From IMG/VR virus record IMGVR_UViG_3300020049_016424, positions 64,001-128,000 of that record: a DNA stretch of 64,000 nucleotides; one strand, given 5' to 3'. The notes under the pieces were generated by a model, which saw only the letters and a list, made by a program, of their open reading frames with translations, was not told where the DNA came from and did not search any database. The position numbers were made by a program, and so were the translations under genes. The DNA comes from a virus. Its lineage: Duplodnaviria > Caudoviricetes. Of the stretch, positions 47,885 through 60,405 are shown one piece after another. Each line of letters begins with the position of its first letter. Position 1 is the first letter of the stretch.

Positions 47885-48457
47885 TCACCCCGTGATGGGG
47901 GTCGCGATGGGCGGCGCCGCGAGGCGTGCCTCGAGCTCTTCTTTGAGATGGGTGCGCGGCGGGTGCGCCGCGCCGTGCTGCTTGCGAGGCCGCATCCGCT
48001 TGCGCGGCTTCGAGTCCCGGAAACACGGCTCGCACAGCTTGCGCGGCACGTAGCTCTTCGTGCGCATGTGACTGCGCAGCGCCTGTCCGGCGGTGACGCA
48101 CTCGAGGCCTCCGCAGCACGTGCACACGTACGTCTCGACGACGGTCGCGGCCTCGAGCTGCCCGAGGATCATCGGGTCGTTCACGTTGAAGTACCGCGTC
48201 GGCATGACCTCGCGGAAGCACCCACAGAGGGTGCCCGGGGGCCGTTCGCTGCCGCAGACGAAGCAATCGTGCTTCGACAGGTCGTCCTGTCGGAACGCGC
48301 TGCTCCAGAGCTCGCCGTGTGCACGCAGGGCCTCGACGGTCACCTGGACTCCGGCGTAGCTGAGCTCGACGCGGAGGCGCTCTTCCTGTCCGAGGAAGAA
48401 TGCCGCGACGCAGCGACGTGCGAAGGTCAGAGAGTCGTAGGTTGCAGGAATGCTCAT
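47885..48457 (-). CDS. multi-CxxC zinc-finger protein
   Basis: CFVC, CGC, CTCC, CEPC; SD AGGAG. Confidence 0.7.
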   Translation of the reverse strand: MSIPATYDSLTFARRCVAAFFLGQEERLRVELSYAGVQVTVEALRAHGELWSSAFRQDDLSKHDCFVCGSERPPGTLCGCFREVMPTRYFNVNDPMILGQLEAATVVETYVCTCCGGLECVTAGQALRSHMRTKSYVPRKLCEPCFRDSKPRKRMRPRKQHGAAHPPRTHLKEELEARLAAPPIATPITG

Positions 48458-48495
48458 GCTGGGTCTCCTGGTATCTTGATTGGGGAGTACGCTCT

Positions 48496-48524
48496 CTTTT
48501 ACCCTGCGAAGTGCCGTTTTTCGG
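48496..48524 (-). promoter_or_regulatory. putative phage promoter CCGAAA-N15-GGTAAAAG
   Basis: Consensus copy upstream of ATG 48457. Confidence 0.65.
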
Positions 48525-48562
48525 ACGCGGCAATCGCCTTGTTTTCAGGGGGTATGAGAGGG

Positions 48563-48568
48563 TAGACT
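48563..48568 (+). promoter_or_regulatory. putative -10 box of a leaderless promoter
   Basis: ggTAGACT 5 nt before ATG 48574. Confidence 0.5.
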
Positions 48569-48573
48569 GGGCC

Positions 48574-51500
48574 ATGGCCTCGGACCGTACCCCTCCTGTC
48601 TCCGCCGCTCCCGCCGGCCTGCGCCCTGTCGTTATCAGTGCCCGTGAGAAGCGAGAGCTTCTGCGCGAGAAGACGCTCGAGGGGCTGCAGAGCCTGTTTC
48701 CGATCTTGGGGCGGTCGCACGACCTGCACCTGATCTCGGCGGCGGTGAAGCCCACGACGTATTCGAGCAATGAACAGAAGCGTGCGATCCTCGAAGGCCG
48801 CACGCTGTCCGAGCCCATCGTCGGTCGTCTGGTGCTCAAGGACAAGGCGGGCGCAGTCGTCGACACGAAGGACAAGCACATCCTCGCGCACCTGCCGTAC
48901 TTCACCGAGCGCCACACGATGATCGTCGGGGGCAACGAGTACGAGGTACCGAACCAGCTCCGGCTCAAGCCCGGCGTCTACACCCGCGAGCGCGGCAACG
49001 GCGAGTACGAGGCTGCGTTCAACCTGAGCAAGGGCGAGAACTTCCGACTGTCGATGGACCCCGAGACCGGCAAGATGAGTGCGGAGTTCGCTACGACGAC
49101 CGCGCCGCTATACCCCCTTCTGCGCGCGCTCGGTGTGCAGGACACGACCGTGCGGCAGCACTGGGGCGCAGATCTCCTCGACGCGAACAAGAAGAGCGCA
49201 GGCAAGGAAGAAGCGGTGCTGAACAAGCTCGTCGCGCGCTTCCGCAAGCCGAAGGACGCGATGCCGTCGACGCTCGAAGGCAAGCGCGCGTTCGTGCAGA
49301 ACTACTTCGACGGCACGCGCATGAGCACGCAGGTGACCGAGCGGACGCTGGGCAAGGGCTACGATCGCGTGACTCCGGACGCGCTGTTGCGCGCCTCGCA
49401 GAAGCTGCTCGAGGTGCATCGCGGTGAGGCGGAGGAAGATGACCGCGACTCGCTCGAGTTCAAGACCATCCACAGCGTCGAGGACTTCTTCAAGGAGCGC
49501 CTCGAGAAAGACGCGAAGTACTCCGTCAACAACAAGCTCATCCACAAGATGAACCAGAGCAAGACGAAGCAGATCAAGGGCTTCATGCCGAACGCGGCGT
49601 ACACGCGGCCGTTGACGTCGTTCCTCACGAGCAGCGCGATCTCTGCGATCCCCACGCAGTTCAACCCGATCGAGCTCATCGATCACGCCGCAAAAGTCAC
49701 CTCACTCGGCGAGGGCGGCATCACGGCCGACCGCGCGATCCCGTTCGAGGCCCGCAAGGTGCACGGCACGCACTACGGCGTGCTCGACATCGTGCGCACG
49801 CCCGAGTCGGGGCATGCTGGCATCGACCTACGCGCTGCGATGGGCGCCTACCGCGACTCGGCGGGCGAACTCTACGCACACATGAAGGACACCCGCACGG
49901 GCAAGCACGCGCCGGTGCGTGTGACGACGCTCGCACGGAGCTCTGTCGGCTTTGCAGGACAGGGCGAGTCGAGCGCGAAGATGGACGCGCTCAAAGGCTC
50001 GAACGCAGTGTCGCTCGACCGCAAGAAGGTCGACTACGTCCTCGCCGATCACACGCACCAGTTCTCGCCCGCGACGGCGCTCGTCCCGTTCCTTGATGGG
50101 ATGCAGATGAACCGTGCCATCATGGGCAGCAAGTTCCAGACGCAGGCGCTGCCGCTGCTCGAGCGCGAAGTGCCGTTCATTCAGGCCCAGGCGCCCCGCG
50201 CTGGACACAGCATGGAGCGTGAGGTTGCGCGGCTCACCGTGCCCACCTCGTCTGTGCACGGCACCGTCGAGAAGATCGACGCGGACTACATCTACATCCG
50301 GCCGCATGCGGAGAAGCACGCTGCCGTCTCTGACGACCTCATCGAAGCGCCTGCGCGAGAGACAACTCCTGAAGAGACGCTCTGGGCCAAGCAGGCGGCT
50401 TACGAGGACTACGACCTCGACGAAGAAGACGGCCTCGACGATCTCGCAATCACGCCTCCGGAGCATCTCTCGGACGCGAAGATCGCGTCTTCGGACACGG
50501 GGCTCATCAAGCTCCCGTACGACACGCACTTCCCCCTCGCGGCGAAGACGTACTTGCACAATGACGTCACGGCGAAGGTGGGAGACACGGTTACGCCGGG
50601 GCAGACGCTCGCCGAGAGCAACTTCACCCGCAACGGCACGATGGCGCTCGGTAAGAACCTGTCGGTCGCGTACCTCGCCTACTACGGAAAAAACAGCAAC
50701 GACGCGGTCGTGATTTCGGAGGCGGCCGCGAAGAAGCTGACGAGCGAGCACATGTACAAGGAGGTCCTGCGCAAGGGACCTGACACGCTCCAGGGCAAGG
50801 CGAAGTACATGGCGTATTTCGGCATGCGCTTCACGAAGGCGCAGCTCGACAAGCTCGACGACAACGGTGTGGCGAAGCCGGGGGCGCACTTCAGCCCTGG
50901 CGACCCTATCGTGCTCGCGCTCGAGAAAGCGACGCCCTCTCCCGAGGCCGCAATGCTCGGGCACCTGCACAAGAGCCTCGTGAAGCCCTACCGTGACGCA
51001 GCGGTGATGTGGGAGCACCACACGGACGGGGAGGCGATCGATGCGGTGAACGCCGCGCGGCAGGTCGTCGTCACGGTGCGCACGCACGAGGCCATGAAGA
51101 TCGGCGACAAGCTCGCGAACCGCTTCGGCGGCAAGGGCGTCGTGTCCGAGATCATCCCGCAGCACAAGATGGTGCAGGACGAAGCCGGCAAGCCGATCGA
51201 CGTGCTCTTCACGAGCGCGGGCATCATCTCGCGCATCAACCCCGCGCAGGTCGTCGAAGGTGCCCTGGGCAAGGTGGTCGAGAAGACAGGCAAGCCGCTC
51301 GTCATCCCGCAGTTCCAGGACCACAGCAACGTCGAGTACGCAAAGAAGCTGCTGAAGGAACACGGCATCTCCGACAAGGAGACGGTCTATGACCCGGTCT
51401 CGGGGCGCAGCATCCCGAAGGTGTTCGTCGGACGCAGCTACATCCTCAAGCTCTTCAAGAGCGGCGAGACGAACTACGCAGCACGCGGCGTCACGAGCTA

Positions 51501-53154
51501 CGACGTGAACCTGCAGCCGACCAAGGGCGGCGACGAAGGTGCGAAAGGCCTTGGCAAGATGGAGATCAACACGCTGCTCGCGCACAACGCGCGCAACGTG
51601 CTCAAGGACGTGCTCACCGTGAAGTCCGAGAAGTCGGACGAGTACTGGCGTGCGCTCGAGTTCGGGCTGCCGCCGCCGGCGCCGAAGACGCCGTTCGTCA
51701 CGCAGAAGTTCAACGCAATGCTCACCGGCGCCGGCATCAACGTCGACAAGCGCGGCAGCATCGTCGGTATCCATGCGCTGACCGATGCGCACGTGAAGGG
51801 GCTCTCGAGCGGCGCGCTCACGCTGCCGGAGCTCGAGAAGAGCAAGAGCTTCATGGTCACGTCGAAGAACCTGAAGCCCGAGACCGGCGGCCTGTTCGAC
51901 CCCGTGCGTACCGGCGGGCTGTCGGGCACGCGATGGTCGCACATCGAGCTGCCCGAGGCTTCGGTGAGCCCCGTGTTCGAGGAGCCCGTACGGCGCCTCC
52001 TCGGCCTCACCAAGGCGAGCCTCGAGAAGGAGCTGATGGACAAGGGCGGCGACGCCCTCAAGAAGAAGCTCAACCGCCTCGACCTCGACAAGCTCGAGAC
52101 CGAGCTCGAGGACAAGACGCGCACGGCACGCGCCTCGGCGCTCGACGACGTCGTCAAGCAGCTGAAGTACGTCCGCGCGCTGAAGTCGCACGGCGTGAAG
52201 GCCGGCGACGCGTATTTCCCGACGCTCGTGCCGGTCATCCCGCCCATCATGCGGCCGATCCTGCCGAGCCAGCGCTCGGGAGAGCTTCAGATCTCAGATG
52301 CGAACTACCTCTACCGCGACGTGGCGCTGGCCGCAGCGGGCCTGAAGGCCGCGAAGGAGACCGAGCTCCCCGAGCTCATCGGCTCCGCACGCAAGCACCT
52401 CTACGACGCCCACGCAGCGCTCGCAGGCACCCGCGAGCCCACATCACCGCAGCTTCAAGGCCGCGGCGTGAAGGGCTTCGTCACGCAGGTGACCGGCGCA
52501 GGCAGCCCGAAGAGCGGCTTCCTCTTCAAGAAGATCTTGAAGCGGCAGCAAGACCTATCGGGCCGCGCCACCGCGACGCCCGACAACACCCTCGACATGG
52601 ACCAGATCGGGGTGCCCGAGGACATGCTCTGGAAGACGTACGACAAGTTCGTCATGAAGGGCCTCATCGGGCAGGGCTACGCCGCGACCCGCGCACAGGA
52701 GATGGTGCAGGAGCGCCACCCTGCCGCGAAGGTCGTCTTCGACCGAGAGCTAAAAGAACGGCCGGTGTTCGTGAATCGAGCACCGTCGCTCCATAAGCAC
52801 AACTTCGTGGCCGCCTTCCCTGTAGCGGTTTCTGGGACCTCATTCCGCGTGAACCCCTTCATCGAGAAGGGCATGAACCTCGACTTCGACGGCGACGCCA
52901 TGCAGCTGCATGTGCCGGTATCCCCGAAGGCCGTCGAGGAGGCCAAGAACCTCACGCTGAGTAAGCTCCTGTTCACCGACAAGGCCCGGGGCGATCTCAT
53001 CATCTTCCCACAGCACGAAGCCATCATCGGCGCCTACCTTGCTACTTCGGGCGCCGCGAAGGGCGCTTCGAAGAAGTTCAAGGACAAGGCAGCCGCGATG
53101 GCCGCGTACAAGCGGGGCGAGATCACCCTCGAGACTCCCATCGAGATCGGCTGA
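48574..53154 (+). CDS. rpoB: multisubunit RNA polymerase, beta-like subunit fused to the N-terminal half of beta' (catalytic DFDGD)
   Basis: beta motifs TPESGHAG, NRAIMGSKFQTQA, GKNL, GDKLANRFGGKGVVS, SRINP, GKME; then beta' motifs GLFDP, HIEL, PVIPP..RP, DLSGRA, NRAPSLH, NLDFDGDAM. Confidence 0.92.
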   Translation: MASDRTPPVSAAPAGLRPVVISAREKRELLREKTLEGLQSLFPILGRSHDLHLISAAVKPTTYSSNEQKRAILEGRTLSEPIVGRLVLKDKAGAVVDTKDKHILAHLPYFTERHTMIVGGNEYEVPNQLRLKPGVYTRERGNGEYEAAFNLSKGENFRLSMDPETGKMSAEFATTTAPLYPLLRALGVQDTTVRQHWGADLLDANKKSAGKEEAVLNKLVARFRKPKDAMPSTLEGKRAFVQNYFDGTRMSTQVTERTLGKGYDRVTPDALLRASQKLLEVHRGEAEEDDRDSLEFKTIHSVEDFFKERLEKDAKYSVNNKLIHKMNQSKTKQIKGFMPNAAYTRPLTSFLTSSAISAIPTQFNPIELIDHAAKVTSLGEGGITADRAIPFEARKVHGTHYGVLDIVRTPESGHAGIDLRAAMGAYRDSAGELYAHMKDTRTGKHAPVRVTTLARSSVGFAGQGESSAKMDALKGSNAVSLDRKKVDYVLADHTHQFSPATALVPFLDGMQMNRAIMGSKFQTQALPLLEREVPFIQAQAPRAGHSMEREVARLTVPTSSVHGTVEKIDADYIYIRPHAEKHAAVSDDLIEAPARETTPEETLWAKQAAYEDYDLDEEDGLDDLAITPPEHLSDAKIASSDTGLIKLPYDTHFPLAAKTYLHNDVTAKVGDTVTPGQTLAESNFTRNGTMALGKNLSVAYLAYYGKNSNDAVVISEAAAKKLTSEHMYKEVLRKGPDTLQGKAKYMAYFGMRFTKAQLDKLDDNGVAKPGAHFSPGDPIVLALEKATPSPEAAMLGHLHKSLVKPYRDAAVMWEHHTDGEAIDAVNAARQVVVTVRTHEAMKIGDKLANRFGGKGVVSEIIPQHKMVQDEAGKPIDVLFTSAGIISRINPAQVVEGALGKVVEKTGKPLVIPQFQDHSNVEYAKKLLKEHGISDKETVYDPVSGRSIPKVFVGRSYILKLFKSGETNYAARGVTSYDVNLQPTKGGDEGAKGLGKMEINTLLAHNARNVLKDVLTVKSEKSDEYWRALEFGLPPPAPKTPFVTQKFNAMLTGAGINVDKRGSIVGIHALTDAHVKGLSSGALTLPELEKSKSFMVTSKNLKPETGGLFDPVRTGGLSGTRWSHIELPEASVSPVFEEPVRRLLGLTKASLEKELMDKGGDALKKKLNRLDLDKLETELEDKTRTARASALDDVVKQLKYVRALKSHGVKAGDAYFPTLVPVIPPIMRPILPSQRSGELQISDANYLYRDVALAAAGLKAAKETELPELIGSARKHLYDAHAALAGTREPTSPQLQGRGVKGFVTQVTGAGSPKSGFLFKKILKRQQDLSGRATATPDNTLDMDQIGVPEDMLWKTYDKFVMKGLIGQGYAATRAQEMVQERHPAAKVVFDRELKERPVFVNRAPSLHKHNFVAAFPVAVSGTSFRVNPFIEKGMNLDFDGDAMQLHVPVSPKAVEEAKNLTLSKLLFTDKARGDLIIFPQHEAIIGAYLATSGAAKGASKKFKDKAAAMAAYKRGEITLETPIEIG

Positions 53155-55530: not shown

Positions 55531-57005
55531 TGCCGCTCGAGGGCGCCGAAGCTCTTCGCACCACGCTGCAACCGCACCAGCAACGTGTGGGCGACCGGCT
55601 GTCTGCAGATGACCAGCCGGGGCTCGTAGCCATCCACGGCCTCGGCAGCGGCAAGACCCTCACAAGCATCGGCGCCGCACAGGCGCTCGGGCTGCCTGCG
55701 CACGCTGTCGTGCCTGCCTCGCTCCAGGGCAACTACGAGAAGGAGCTCGACAAGCACCTCACGACGGGGGCAGCGCGGCCTGAAGTGCACTCGCTGCAGC
55801 GCACGACGATGCGCCCCGAGAGCGTCGACCCTGCGGGCGGTTTCCTGATCATGGATGAGGCGCACCGCGTCCGCGACCCTTCGACGAAGAGCTACAGTGC
55901 CGCGAAGCAACTCGGACAACAGGCTGCGAAGCGCCTGTACATGACCGCGAGCCCCACCTACAACCACCCCGTCGATCTCGCGCCCCTCGTGAACCTTGCT
56001 GCAGGGGAGAAGGTCCTGCCGGCGAACAAGCAGGAGTTCGAAGATCGGTACGTGCGCACGCGCCGCATCGACCCTGGATTCTTCGCACGCACCTTTCGCG
56101 GCATCAAACCCGGCGAGGTGCAGGAGCTCACGCGCCAGCAGGAGCTCGAGGACGTCGCGAAGAAGTGGGTCGACTACCACGAAGGCGGCGGAGGTGATTT
56201 CCCCGACCGTATCGATGAGACCATCTCCGTGCCGATGTCGAGCGAGCAGCGCGACGTCTACGACACGGTGCTTGGCAAGGCCCCTGCCTGGATGCAGTAC
56301 AAGGTGAGGCACGGGCTACCCCCTTCGAAGGCCGAAGCTGCCGATCTCAACGCGTTCATGACCGGCGCGCGGCAGGCACAGCTCTCCCCGCACGTGTTCC
56401 AGCAAGGGATGGACCCGCTGCTGGGTGCGACGAAGCAGCACGCCGCATTCGAGCGTCTGCAGAAAGCCATTGCAGAGAACCCGGAGCATCGGGCAGTCGT
56501 CTACTCGAACTACCTGCAAGCGGGCCTCGGGCCCTACCAGGCCCTCCTCGACAAGCACCAGATCCCATACGCGTCGTTCACCGGCGAAATGGGGCGCGGT
56601 GAGCGGGAGCAGGCCGTGCGTGACTACAATCGGGGCAAACTCCGTGCGCTCCTCGTCTCGAGCGCGGGCGGCGAAGGCCTGGACCTGAAGGGGACACGGC
56701 AGCTGCAGTTACTCGAACCTGCTTGGAACGCCGAACGGCTGAATCAGGTGATTGGGCGGGGGATCCGCTATAAGAGCCACGCGCATTTACCCGAAGATCA
56801 GCGCAACGTTCGCGTAGAACAGTATTTGTCTTCCATCCCGCAGGGGCATCTAGGCAAGTTCTTTGGTGTGCAACCCGAGATGACGGCTGACGCGTACCTC
56901 ACGCAGGTAAGTGCAGACAAAGAACGGCTGAATCAGCAGTTACGTCGCATATTGGAACGCGCGCAAGCCCATGCTACTCCTCCCCTAGCGCATGAAAAAA
57001 CATAA
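55530..57005 (+). CDS. SF2 helicase, SNF2-like with NPH-I/VETF-type motif VI
   Basis: LQPHQ, HGLGSGKT, DEAH, TASP, SSAGGEGLDLKG, EPAWN, QVIGRGIRYKSH. Confidence 0.85.
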   Translation: MPLEGAEALRTTLQPHQQRVGDRLSADDQPGLVAIHGLGSGKTLTSIGAAQALGLPAHAVVPASLQGNYEKELDKHLTTGAARPEVHSLQRTTMRPESVDPAGGFLIMDEAHRVRDPSTKSYSAAKQLGQQAAKRLYMTASPTYNHPVDLAPLVNLAAGEKVLPANKQEFEDRYVRTRRIDPGFFARTFRGIKPGEVQELTRQQELEDVAKKWVDYHEGGGGDFPDRIDETISVPMSSEQRDVYDTVLGKAPAWMQYKVRHGLPPSKAEAADLNAFMTGARQAQLSPHVFQQGMDPLLGATKQHAAFERLQKAIAENPEHRAVVYSNYLQAGLGPYQALLDKHQIPYASFTGEMGRGEREQAVRDYNRGKLRALLVSSAGGEGLDLKGTRQLQLLEPAWNAERLNQVIGRGIRYKSHAHLPEDQRNVRVEQYLSSIPQGHLGKFFGVQPEMTADAYLTQVSADKERLNQQLRRILERAQAHATPPLAHEKT

Positions 57006-57894
57006 GTACCGCGTACAAGAGTACCGCGCAGAGTATCATGCGCTGTGGAACGCCGTAGCTCGCTGTACAAACCCGCGCAATGCTTCGTACTCTGCATACG
57101 GCGCAAAAGGGGTCCAGGTGTGTGAAGCATGGCGCGGCTCTGAAGGATTCAACGTATTCATCCACGATATGGGGCCCCGTCCTAGTGTTCTACACAGTTT
57201 GGACCGTGTAGATGTGACGGGCGGTTACACGCGCGACAATTGTCGGTGGGCCACCCGATCAGAGCAGGCAAATAACACTAGGAATACCCGAAAAATCACG
57301 CTATTTGAAACAACTAAGACGTTCAAACAGTGGGCGGCAGTGTACGGACTGCGCGATTCGTTAGTGCACACCCGTATCAACAAACTAGGCTGGCCGATAG
57401 AGCGTGCGTTCACCACGCCTGCTGCGAAGGTGGACCAAGCTAAGGGCGCAGACCCTGCAGCAGCCGCCCTTCGACGTGCGATCCAACGCTGCCACAACCC
57501 AAACAACCCACAGTACGCGCGCTATGGCGCTCGCGGAATCGTTGTCTGCACACAATGGCGTGGAAAGCGGGGCCTGTCGCAGTTCAAACAGGATATCGGA
57601 CCCCATCCGGGGCCTGGATATTCGCTGGATCGAATAGATACCAACCAAGGATACGCGCCGGAAAACTGTCGTTGGGCGACACGAACAACACAATTGAATA
57701 ACCGTAGGTGCACTAAAACCCTAACATACGCAGGACGCTGTCTCACGTATGCGCAATGGGCGCGAGATCTGGGCATTGACGAACAGACAGTCCGCTGGCG
57801 CATCAAACAAGGGTGGCCCCTTCCGCGGGTGCTCGCGCCAAGCCCAATACAACGCGCACGCAGGCTCTTGACCGCTGCCGCAGCTACCCAGTAG
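56992..57894 (+). CDS. homing endonuclease with two tandem HNH modules
   Basis: Two copies of RCxNP...YGxxGxxVCxxW...DxGP.P...SLDRxD..GY..NCRWAT..QxNNxR; lower GC. Confidence 0.85.
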   Translation: MKKHKYRVQEYRAEYHALWNAVARCTNPRNASYSAYGAKGVQVCEAWRGSEGFNVFIHDMGPRPSVLHSLDRVDVTGGYTRDNCRWATRSEQANNTRNTRKITLFETTKTFKQWAAVYGLRDSLVHTRINKLGWPIERAFTTPAAKVDQAKGADPAAAALRRAIQRCHNPNNPQYARYGARGIVVCTQWRGKRGLSQFKQDIGPHPGPGYSLDRIDTNQGYAPENCRWATRTTQLNNRRCTKTLTYAGRCLTYAQWARDLGIDEQTVRWRIKQGWPLPRVLAPSPIQRARRLLTAAAATQ

Positions 57895-57904
57895 CCTGTT
57901 GCGC

Positions 57905-58556
57905 ATGTTGATCCTCGAAATCCGTGCCGGCGAAGGTGGATCTGACGCCAAGGACCTCGTTCTCGAACAGCAGGAGATGTATCTCCGGCGCTGCGCGTTC
58001 CACGGTCTTTGACTGCGCGCTGCTCGACGCACGCCCCAGCAGCGTGACGCTCCGCATCGCAGGCTCTCGCGCCGCAGACCTGTTCCGAGACGAAACTGGC
58101 AAGCACTGCTGGATGCGTGTGCCTCCGGGCGAGAAGCGCGGTCGTGTTCACACGAGCACCGTCACCGTGGCCGTGCTGCCCGAGGTCTCTGAGCGCACGC
58201 TCTCGATCCCGGAACGTGACCTCGAGATCTCAGTGTGCAGAGGCTCGGGCGCAGGAGGCCAGCACCGTAACAAGACCGAGTCGGCCGTGATGATGAAGCA
58301 CGTGCCTACAGGGATCATCGTGCGTTGTGAGTCCGAGCGCTCTCAGATCCAAAACCGCGCCTCTGCGCTCGAAGTGCTCCGTGCGCGACTCGGCGCCGCG
58401 GCCCGCACAGGCGCGCACCTCGACCGCAACGCAGGGCGTAGGGAGCAGCTCGAAGGGTCGAAGCGCCGAACCGTACGCGTACCCGACGGGCAAGTCGTCG
58501 ACCACCTCACCGGTAGGGTCTGGAAGCTGCGAGACTACCTGAAGGGGACCTGGTAA
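57905..58556 (+). CDS. class I peptide release factor, RF1-like, lacking domain 1; predicted +1 frameshift join(57905..58009,58011..58556), 216 aa
   Basis: Frame 0: MLILEIRAGEGGSDAKD...MY...GL then CTT-TGA-C; +1 frame: ETGKH..RVPPGEKRGRVHTSTVTVAVLPE, GSGAGGQHRNKTESAV, ERSQIQNR. Confidence 0.88.
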
Positions 58557-58572
58557 GATCCGGCCTAGCTCC

Positions 58573-60369
58573 ATGAAGACGCTCGGCCAGCACCTGCTCG
58601 ATGACGCCGTACCCGCCGGCTATCGCCCACAAGGGGCTTGGACGCGCGGGGCGCTCTACAAGCAGATGGTGCGGCTCGCGCAAGACGACCCCGAAACGTA
58701 CACGCAGACCATCGTCCGGGTGAAGAACCTGGGCGATGAGCTCGCGACGCTCGAGGGCATCAGCGTCGGTCTCGACGACATCGCACCGATCCACGCGACG
58801 CGGGATGCCGTGATGAAGCCCGCGATCTCCGCCTTCAACAAGGCGACGACCGACACGCAACGCCGCAAGGTCGTCATGGACACGCAGGCGAAGCTCGTCG
58901 CGCAGACCAAGGACCATCCCGGAACGCTCGGCGCGATGGCGCGTTCAGGCGGCCGCGGTAACCAGGTGCAGCTGATGAAGACGGTGGGCAGCCCCGTGGC
59001 CGCAAACGACGAGCGGGACGTGGCGCAGCCCTGGCTGATCCGCAACTCCTACAGCGAGGGCCTCAAGCCCGCAGACTGGTGGACCGCGAATCGCGAAGCG
59101 CGCATGGCCGCGGTGAAGTCGACCATCGAGGTCACCGAGCCGGGCGACCTCTCGAAGATCATCGTCAACAACACCACCGGCCAAGTCGTCACCACGCACG
59201 ACTGCGGCAGCTACAACGGCCTCGAGTTCCAAACGACGTCGTCTGAGATCTACGACCGATACCTCGCAGGCGCCGCGGGCGGCTTCCCGCACAACACGCT
59301 CATCGACAAACGCGTCGTCGACGAACTCCGCAAGAAGAACATCACGAAGGTCATCGTGCGCTCTCCGATGACGTGCGAGGCTTCGACCGGCGTGTGCCAG
59401 CTCTGCATGGGTCGCGCCGTCACCGGCAAGCTCAACCGCATCGGGGACAACGTCGGCGTGCGCGCTTCGCACGCGATGGGCGAACCCCTCACGCAGCTCG
59501 CGCTCAACGCCAAGCACGGCGTGCGCACAGCGGGCGGCGCCGCGGGCGTCAGCGGTCTCGAGGGCTTCCGGGCGCTGATCGAAAGCCCCGTGACCTTCAA
59601 GGGCAAGGCGGCGCTCGCGCCGGTGAAGGGCACCGTAACGAAGATCGAAGCCGCGCCCCAGGGCGGTACGTTCTTCCACATGGGCGAACACCGCGTGCAC
59701 GCACTACCGGGGCTGCGCGCCGTCGTGAAGGCGGGCGACTCAGTGCATGCCGGGGACGTGCTCTCCGAAGGCACGCCGCGTCCGATGGAGGTCGTGGCGC
59801 TCAAGGGCCTCGGTGCCGGTCGGGACTACCTGGTGAACCAGCTCGGCACGATCTACAGGGACGCAGGCATCGACGTCGATCGCCGGCACCTCGAGATCCT
59901 CGCCAAGAGTACGCTGAATCACATGAAGGTCGACAAGATCGGTCAGAACGACCATGGCGTCGTTCGGGGCGACGTCATCACCTACAACAAGTTCCGGCAG
60001 ATCGTGAAAGACTCGATCGAGGACACGCCGCTTTCAGACGCCGAGGGCGAGTACCTCGCGGCGCCGGTGTTCGAGCACCTTCCAGGCACCCGCATCACTT
60101 CGGGCCTGATGGCCGATCTACGCCGGCGCGGTGTGAAGTCCGTGAAGACCGCCGCGGGCGCTCCGCAGGTGTCGCCCATCATGGCGCCTGCCACGCGTAA
60201 TCCGCTCTTGAACCCCGACTGGATGGCCCGCATGGGGCATCGCCTGCTCAAGCAGACGCTTCTCGACGCGGCGCACCAGGCGCACACGAGCGACATTCAC
60301 GGCGCATCGCCGATTCCCGCCATGATCTATAGCGCCGAGTTCGGCGAAGGTTTCGACGGGCACTACTAA
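58573..60369 (+). CDS. rpoC: RNA polymerase beta' C-terminal half
   Basis: MARSGGRG, SYSEGL, bridge-helix-like AR...K...T.EPGDLSK, DCG, RSPMTC...VCQLCMG, trigger-loop-like GEPLTQLALNAKH, DRRHLEIL. Confidence 0.88.
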   Translation: MKTLGQHLLDDAVPAGYRPQGAWTRGALYKQMVRLAQDDPETYTQTIVRVKNLGDELATLEGISVGLDDIAPIHATRDAVMKPAISAFNKATTDTQRRKVVMDTQAKLVAQTKDHPGTLGAMARSGGRGNQVQLMKTVGSPVAANDERDVAQPWLIRNSYSEGLKPADWWTANREARMAAVKSTIEVTEPGDLSKIIVNNTTGQVVTTHDCGSYNGLEFQTTSSEIYDRYLAGAAGGFPHNTLIDKRVVDELRKKNITKVIVRSPMTCEASTGVCQLCMGRAVTGKLNRIGDNVGVRASHAMGEPLTQLALNAKHGVRTAGGAAGVSGLEGFRALIESPVTFKGKAALAPVKGTVTKIEAAPQGGTFFHMGEHRVHALPGLRAVVKAGDSVHAGDVLSEGTPRPMEVVALKGLGAGRDYLVNQLGTIYRDAGIDVDRRHLEILAKSTLNHMKVDKIGQNDHGVVRGDVITYNKFRQIVKDSIEDTPLSDAEGEYLAAPVFEHLPGTRITSGLMADLRRRGVKSVKTAAGAPQVSPIMAPATRNPLLNPDWMARMGHRLLKQTLLDAAHQAHTSDIHGASPIPAMIYSAEFGEGFDGHY

Positions 60370-60405
60370 TCTCTGTGGGGAGATTCGTGGTAGAAAGGGA
60401 GTAAC

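Follow-up and report, generated by a model that had tools for sequence, protein, structure and literature searches.

Frameshifting by +1 at a CUU-UGA-C site is the textbook mechanism by which RF2 (prfB) regulates its own synthesis. A survey from 2025 that covered over 12,000 genomes found the programmed shift in prfB only, with UAG in 0 of 8,164 prfB motifs and no case in prfA (PMC12421855), and the GeneTack survey lists prfB as the sole cluster of this kind (PMC3711429). Phages and frameshifts both go unmentioned in a survey of how release factors evolved (PMC6514570), and work on recoded phages describes phage RF1 and RF2 genes and reports no frameshift in them (bioRxiv 10.1101/2021.08.26.457843). 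Our search of the literature found no published account of a short phage RF1-type factor gated by a frameshift.

We analyzed a 64-kb stretch of DNA, hereafter the window, from a phage genome that measures 182,833 bp (~183 kb) in full, and found a release-factor gene that is split between two reading frames (Table 1). An initial annotation had proposed that a frame opened by ATG encodes the start of RF domain 2 and meets CTT TGA C, that this site falls at codon 35 within domain 2 with no clear SD before it, and that the remainder of the protein, GGQ included, lies in the +1 frame. The open reading frames, the alignment to RF1 and the sequence 5′ of the site agree with each of these points. The frame-0 part supplies RF domain 2 with strand beta-1 and its long helix, including the EIRAGEGGSDAK motif, while the +1 frame begins with GAC, is open until its TAA and carries RVPPGEKRGRVHTS and GGQ, the latter being invariant in alignments A1 and A3. 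When CTT-T is read as a single step, the joined product (P0001) is 216 aa long.

Table 1. Features of the release-factor locus and its neighbors, with positions in the window
Feature	Position	Strand	Basis or content
Frame-0 part: 35 sense codons, ATG to Leu CTT	57905..58009	+	aligns to RF1 profile from position 106
Shift heptamer CTT TGA C: P-site Leu codon, in-frame UGA (58010-58012), 3′ C (58013)	58007..58013	+	
+1-frame part: residues 36-216 and TAA stop (58554-58556)	58011..58556	+	rest of domain 2, domain 3 with GGQ, domain 4
GGQ catalytic motif, residues 117-119	58254..58262	+	Pfam RF-1 domain, 96.9 bits
26-nt block GCGCTGCRCGTTCCACGGTCTTTGAC, SD-less form of the shift cassette	57988..58013	+	alignment A2, window vs L164
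Stop-codon recognition loop HCWMRVPPGEKRGRVHTS	58104..58157	+	alignment to RF1
RNA polymerase piece 1: 1584-aa beta + beta′-N fusion	48400-53154	+	
RNA polymerase piece 2: 598-aa beta′-C	58573-60369	+	
300-aa ORF, two tandem HNH-endonuclease-like halves	56992-57894	+	phrog_3377, E 3e-86, two stretches

As in the prfB-type cassette, an in-frame stop directly follows CUU, the protein continues in the +1 frame and the stop is followed by C (TGA C), a weak termination context. The SD-like sequence that stands 3 nt 5′ of CUU in that cassette is missing from the window, where the heptamer is preceded by TTC CAC GGT with no purine-rich SD. The CTTTGAC heptamer is not rare by itself, occurring three times in the window against about six copies expected. 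Because the heptamer alone is uninformative, the argument draws its weight from the phase of the site, the homology on both flanks and conservation in relatives.

The protein sequence continues across the break. P0001 matched NCBIfam RF1 (NF001859) with 179.9 bits against a cut-off of 400, and its residues 2-214 aligned with profile positions 106-329 of 347 in one stretch that spans the junction. Scores were 177 bits for RF1 TIGR00019 (cut-off 423), 153.5 bits for RF2 (TIGR00020; cut-off 370) and 78.8 bits for PrfH (TIGR03072; cut-off 166.65), an order that upholds the RF1-like scaffold proposed at first. The complete Pfam RF-1 domain (PF00472) matched well above its cut-off of 35, which places the product in the class-I superfamily with GGQ. 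Pfam PCRF (PF03462) was matched in its C-terminal half, over positions 102-194 with 61.9 bits, indicating the domain 2/4 superdomain. A phmmer search of the PDB aligned residues 3-214 with residues 89-311 of Thermotoga maritima RF1, ungapped at the junction.

The RF1 match begins at profile position 106, and the product is not a full-length RF1 with domain 1. We found no match to domain 1 (PCRF profile positions 1-101) anywhere in the 182,833-bp genome, so that the initial annotation was also right in describing a factor that lacks this domain. A factor without domain 1 was reportedly found by Mora et al. in 2003 to read codons and hydrolyze peptidyl-tRNA still, with no interaction with RF3. 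By analogy, the phage factor should read codons and hydrolyze peptidyl-tRNA and would not contact RF3. An AlphaFold2 model of the joined product, built with 31 unshifted homologues as input, reached a pLDDT of 85.9 and a pTM of 0.80 and folds as RF domains 2-3-4. Residues 1-35 contribute strand 2-8 and helix 13-32 to domain 2 with pLDDT 92-95, and the junction falls in the turn preceding strand 36-43. The model superimposed on free RF1 and RF2 crystal structures with TM scores of 0.83-0.87 over about 220 columns.

Among described factors of similar size, PrfH (RFH) is likewise about 200 aa long, lacks domain 1 and keeps a decoding-type domain and GGQ (PMC6514570). It differs from the phage family in that the family consensus keeps the RF1 stop-reading residues and in that no frameshift has been described for prfH. 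We ruled out a PrfH identity for the phage gene on its sub-cut-off score (78.8 versus 166.65 bits) and on the absence of the RtcB operon partner, for which no match was found in the 182,833-bp genome.

We considered whether the locus is expressed with no frameshift at all. The product would then be either the 210-aa +1 ORF (GTG, 57924-58556) or something shorter that starts internally, with the 35-codon ORF acting as a separate leader peptide. An ORF with a GTG start does exist, and gene callers annotate the locus in this way (P0003, 210 aa; P0004, 169 aa), but the N-terminal extension in the +1 frame is unconserved and the called starts are non-homologous, with GTG 57924 in the window against an ATG 20 codons past the junction in L163, a locus from a relative described below. 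The frame-0 peptide, on the other hand, carries the conserved EIRAxEGG strand and the domain 2 helix, which are packed into the domain in the model. RF1 needs this strand and helix element to read U1 of the stop codon, with the tip of the helix reading that base (PMC3974865). The best 120 database homologues speak against the alternative as well, since 48 of them hold both parts in one continuous frame of about 222 aa. For the remaining 72 the gene call covers the +1 frame alone, and 63 of these read F-D (42), F-S (13) or F-E (8) at the junction, which are the +1-frame prints of CTT-TGA-C, CTT-TAG-C and CTT-TGA-R, respectively. We consider expression with no frameshift very improbable.

A single-base frame break beside a TTT run in a metagenome-assembled phage could also reflect a sequencing or assembly error, with CTTGAC or CTTTTGAC as the true letters, or a recent inactivating mutation that left a pseudogene. 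The break is, however, kept in five independent assemblies of two relatives from other samples, all with the identical heptamer. One is a JGI contig that is 98% identical to the window (L167), in which the site and the frame-0 peptide are unchanged. The other four are Logan runs of a 76%-identical phage (L163-L166), and these show the same 35-codon ORF, CTTTGAC and continuation in the +1 frame. Between the window and L164 only one base differs (R) over the 26-nt block, while the coding DNA just 5′ of it is strongly diverged; this better conservation at the site than in its flanks counts against an error or a pseudogene. Both halves of the gene keep conservation at the protein level. The frame-0 peptides of the window and L164 match at 19 of 35 residues, every RF hallmark position among them, and the overlapping +1 frame shows conservation in no more than its last seven residues.

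The same codon is broken throughout a larger family. A scan of IMG/VR with an alignment as query recovered 468 viral stretches encoding a relative, and the loci that could be analyzed numbered 82, made up of 78 of the 80 viral loci kept together with the window, L163, L167 and L026. A +1 shift is needed at the identical codon in 64 of these 82 loci, and the remaining 18 are unshifted. Every shifted locus has CTT as the P-site codon (64/64). The stop is TGA in 51, TAG in 12 and TAA in one, and it is followed by C in 53, G in 10 and A in one. Of the 64 shifted loci, 48 have an SD-like sequence before the site, as against 0 of the 18 that need no shift. Among 56 distinct shift sites, GGAGG stands exactly 3 nt 5′ in 25 and a GGRRR purine run does so in 38, giving the consensus CGGAGG-NGT-CTT-TGA-C. 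The check that the initial annotation called for, on conservation of CTTTGAC and the frame break in homologues, therefore has an answer: the site is kept as CTT-stop and the homologues are not all continuous. Together with the independent assemblies, the recurrence of CTT-stop at one codon strongly supports the RF2-style programmed frameshift that had been suggested.

Shifted members were spread across the whole family in a quick maximum-likelihood tree, with TGA and TAG forms interleaved among close kin. Taken together, the assemblies, the viral survey, the database homologues and the tree make sequencing error, a pseudogene and internal initiation poor explanations of the split, and we regard an error or pseudogene as scarcely credible.

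Other searches define how far the family could be traced. A scan of viral sequences with the single protein returned no match, an alignment query being required. Neither blastn of positions 57000-60400 against deposited phages nor an exact search for the clade 18-mer CGTTCCACGGTCTTTGAC in viral contigs gave a match, and a scan of genome contigs with alignment A1 returned almost exclusively housekeeping RF1 genes, with L026 as the sole family member. One of the database homologues called from the +1 frame alone is cellular: the Minicystis rosea chromosome (CP016211.1; L170 7898-8567) has a 37-codon ORF followed by a 188-aa +1 ORF with G-F-D at the junction. This split gene lies amid ordinary chromosomal genes, and the family is thus not confined to phages.

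A few viral loci depart from the usual arrangement. In L083, L084 and L086 (at ~3100 in each locus) an in-frame stop stands at the same codon with the frame unchanged (CTA TGA C, CTC TGA C and TAT TAG A). These three would need readthrough in place of a shift, so that the stop itself seems to be a conserved feature. Seven AT-rich loci of 30-34% GC (L114, L116, L121, L144, L146, L148 and L160) have two in-frame TGA codons in the gene, one of them a codon past the usual site, and probably come from TGA-recoded phages.

Set beside prfB, the phage cassette has the same CTT TGA C, with Leu CUU in the P site, a slow stop in the A site and then C, again in a class-I release-factor gene, and in most relatives the SD-like GGAGG lies exactly 3 nt upstream. 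In contrast to prfB, the gated factor is RF1-derived and lacks domain 1, and its shift site occupies codon 35, within domain 2, whereas that of prfB is near codon 26 in domain 1; the two sites are accordingly not homologous in position. The phage relatives also use TAG (12/64) and TAA, and TAG occurs in 0 of 8,164 prfB motifs (PMC12421855). A further difference is the missing SD in the window's clade.

In the quick tree the window groups with L167 and L163 in a well-supported clade that sits on a long stem, and the SD-like element is absent in all three, the CGG AGG codons of most relatives being TTC CAC in the window. We looked for an RNA structure in place of the SD and found that the window region folds no better than its shuffles (z +1.3 to +1.8). 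A downstream hairpin in L164 (z -2.7) was rejected as a conserved substitute, as it is not common to the window. The phage's own use of SD sequences is weak, at 17% of first starts against a background of 10%, and no SD was found before the release-factor gene or its neighbors. An SD stimulator may simply not be useful in this host if the phage's genes make so little use of one. With neither an SD nor a substitute structure, shift efficiency may be low, and in this clade, which lacks the usual stimulator, shifting is probably less efficient and driven solely by the slippery codon and the weak context of UGA-C.

The phage genome has 64.7% GC, a standard code and a single tRNA (Asp). All three stops are used, with TGA ending 106 of 159 crude ORFs, about two thirds. 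These features set it apart from recoded phages (Lak, crAss-like, Jade and Agate), which resemble it in carrying class-I factors thought to reshape termination in infection but whose factors go with suppressor tRNAs and reassigned stops (bioRxiv 10.1101/2021.08.26.457843). The release-factor gene is flanked by the two pieces of a multisubunit RNA polymerase, and the ~5.4 kb between these pieces hold two minus-strand ORFs, a 311-aa ORF, an SNF2 helicase, the HNH gene and the release-factor gene. The HNH ORF, which separates the helicase from the release-factor gene, is absent in L163 and L164, where the helicase stop overlaps the ATG of the factor (ATGA), and it is probably a mobile homing-endonuclease insertion. 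No conserved gene neighborhood was found across the 82 loci; apart from the factor, the most widespread cluster was present in seven of them.

We conclude that the gene probably encodes a 216-aa, RF1-derived class-I factor that lacks domain 1 and is made by a prfB-type programmed +1 frameshift tied to slow UGA termination. From the sequence we infer the shifting, its response to termination capacity, the release of peptides and the codon specificity of the product. After 35 codons, the ribosome would hold tRNA-Leu on CUU in the P site with UGA-C in the A site. A release factor that arrives quickly would let go a 35-residue peptide. If termination is slow, tRNA-Leu would re-pair from CUU to UUU, and the ribosome would carry on in the +1 frame to make the decoding loop, GGQ and domain 4. 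The lower the capacity of the cell for termination at UGA, the more phage factor would then be produced. As the phage has its own multisubunit RNA polymerase genes flanking the factor, the host supply of release factors may well run down during infection. A factor that reads stops as RF1 does would make the UGA site a sensor of host RF2 and not of the factor itself, and if Met181 and Gly186 of its decoding loop confer reading of UGA, the site would be self-regulating.

One observation that counts against the prfB-type reading is that close relatives flip between TGA and TAG, unlike prfB. It raises the alternative that the programmed shift is a fixed attenuator and not a feedback sensor, holding a potentially toxic factor at a low and roughly constant level with the identity of the stop unimportant. 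This account gains from the presence of TGA, TAG and TAA at the site, from the reported harm of release-factor overexpression (PMC12421855) and from the probable inefficiency of shifting in a clade with no SD. However, each of the 64 shifted members has a stop at the site and none has a rare sense codon, C predominates as the 3′ base, as in the weak-termination context of prfB, and the three relatives with an unshifted in-frame stop suggest that the stop has been selected as a sensor of termination. We therefore regard a fixed attenuator as possible but unlikely. That relatives swap TGA and TAG freely is compatible with a general sensor of termination capacity, a mere attenuator or factors of broad specificity.

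The specificity of the phage factor bears directly on what a frameshift gate would sense. In RF1, Thr186 contacts stop bases 1 and 2, and Gln181 and Thr194 contact base 3 (PMC3974865). The window has Met (58113-58115) at the position of Gln181 and Gly (58128-58130) at that of Thr186 in PxT, and it keeps His193 and Thr194. The tripeptide is PPG, which agrees with the non-canonical loop described at first, so that neither the PxT and Gln181 with which RF1 reads UAA and UAG nor the SPF of RF2 is present, and the RF2 score is under its cut-off. The loops of L167 and L163 have Met181 followed by Pro-Pro-Asn186, against Met and Pro-Pro-Gly in the window. Although the window and L167 are 98% identical, 10 of their 20 nucleotide differences fall within 34 nt of the loop (58118-58151), and the segment reads PPGEKRGRVH in the window and PPNDKRGRVQ in L167. 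This clustering suggests a recombination patch or diversifying selection on decoding.

Over the family as a whole, the consensus loop is QRVPPT, which looks RF1-like (UAA/UAG reading). Among the best 120 homologues, Q...PPN is found in 55 and Q...PPT in 45, and PPG recurs. Inspection of the loci table showed no link between the tripeptide (PPT, PPN, SPT or others) and the stop at the shift site. In two relatives with a TAG site (L138 and L143) the PxT loop is lost altogether (HRWQEKSGGRMQTS), and reading of stops in the manner of RF1 is hardly possible for them.

The same two loop positions are altered in mtRF1a of green algae (Scenedesmaceae), where a missing Gln181 accompanies the disappearance of UAG stops and Thr186Asn accompanies UGA stops (PMC6821328). 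The window has Met181/Gly186 and L167 and L163 have Met181/Asn186. The two substitutions in the window lend indirect support to the suggestion of the initial annotation that the factor is made when UGA termination is weak and may read UGA, a suggestion complicated by the TAG sites of relatives and by the lack of a visible tie between tripeptide and stop. The algal factors differ in being organellar and full-length with no frameshift, and the link between residue and codon is there a correlation and not biochemistry (PMC6821328). We set aside the argument of that study from a Ser at position 206, in which RF1 and RF2 numbering seem to be mixed. It is conceivable, if on balance doubtful, that through Gln181Met and Thr186Gly/Asn the factor of this clade has switched specificity and reads UGA, as an RF2-like or omnipotent factor with a loop unlike SPF, in which case the factor would sense itself through the CUU-UGA-C switch. 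A wider form of this idea is that family members with PPN or PPG could act as bacterial-type factors on all three stops, and such reading would explain the free swapping of TGA and TAG at the shift site.

The device known from prfB would here gate a different factor, a domain-1-less derivative of RF1, at a non-homologous codon. It is present in a large family of phage genes and in some bacterial genes, in UGA, UAG and UAA versions and in SD-bearing and SD-less ones, which makes the family a natural series for asking how the individual parts of the cassette contribute. In the window's clade, the changed decoding loop provides a specific case in which altered specificity of a release factor can be put to the test. 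Our findings suggest that large phages monitor the termination capacity of the infected cell and top it up.
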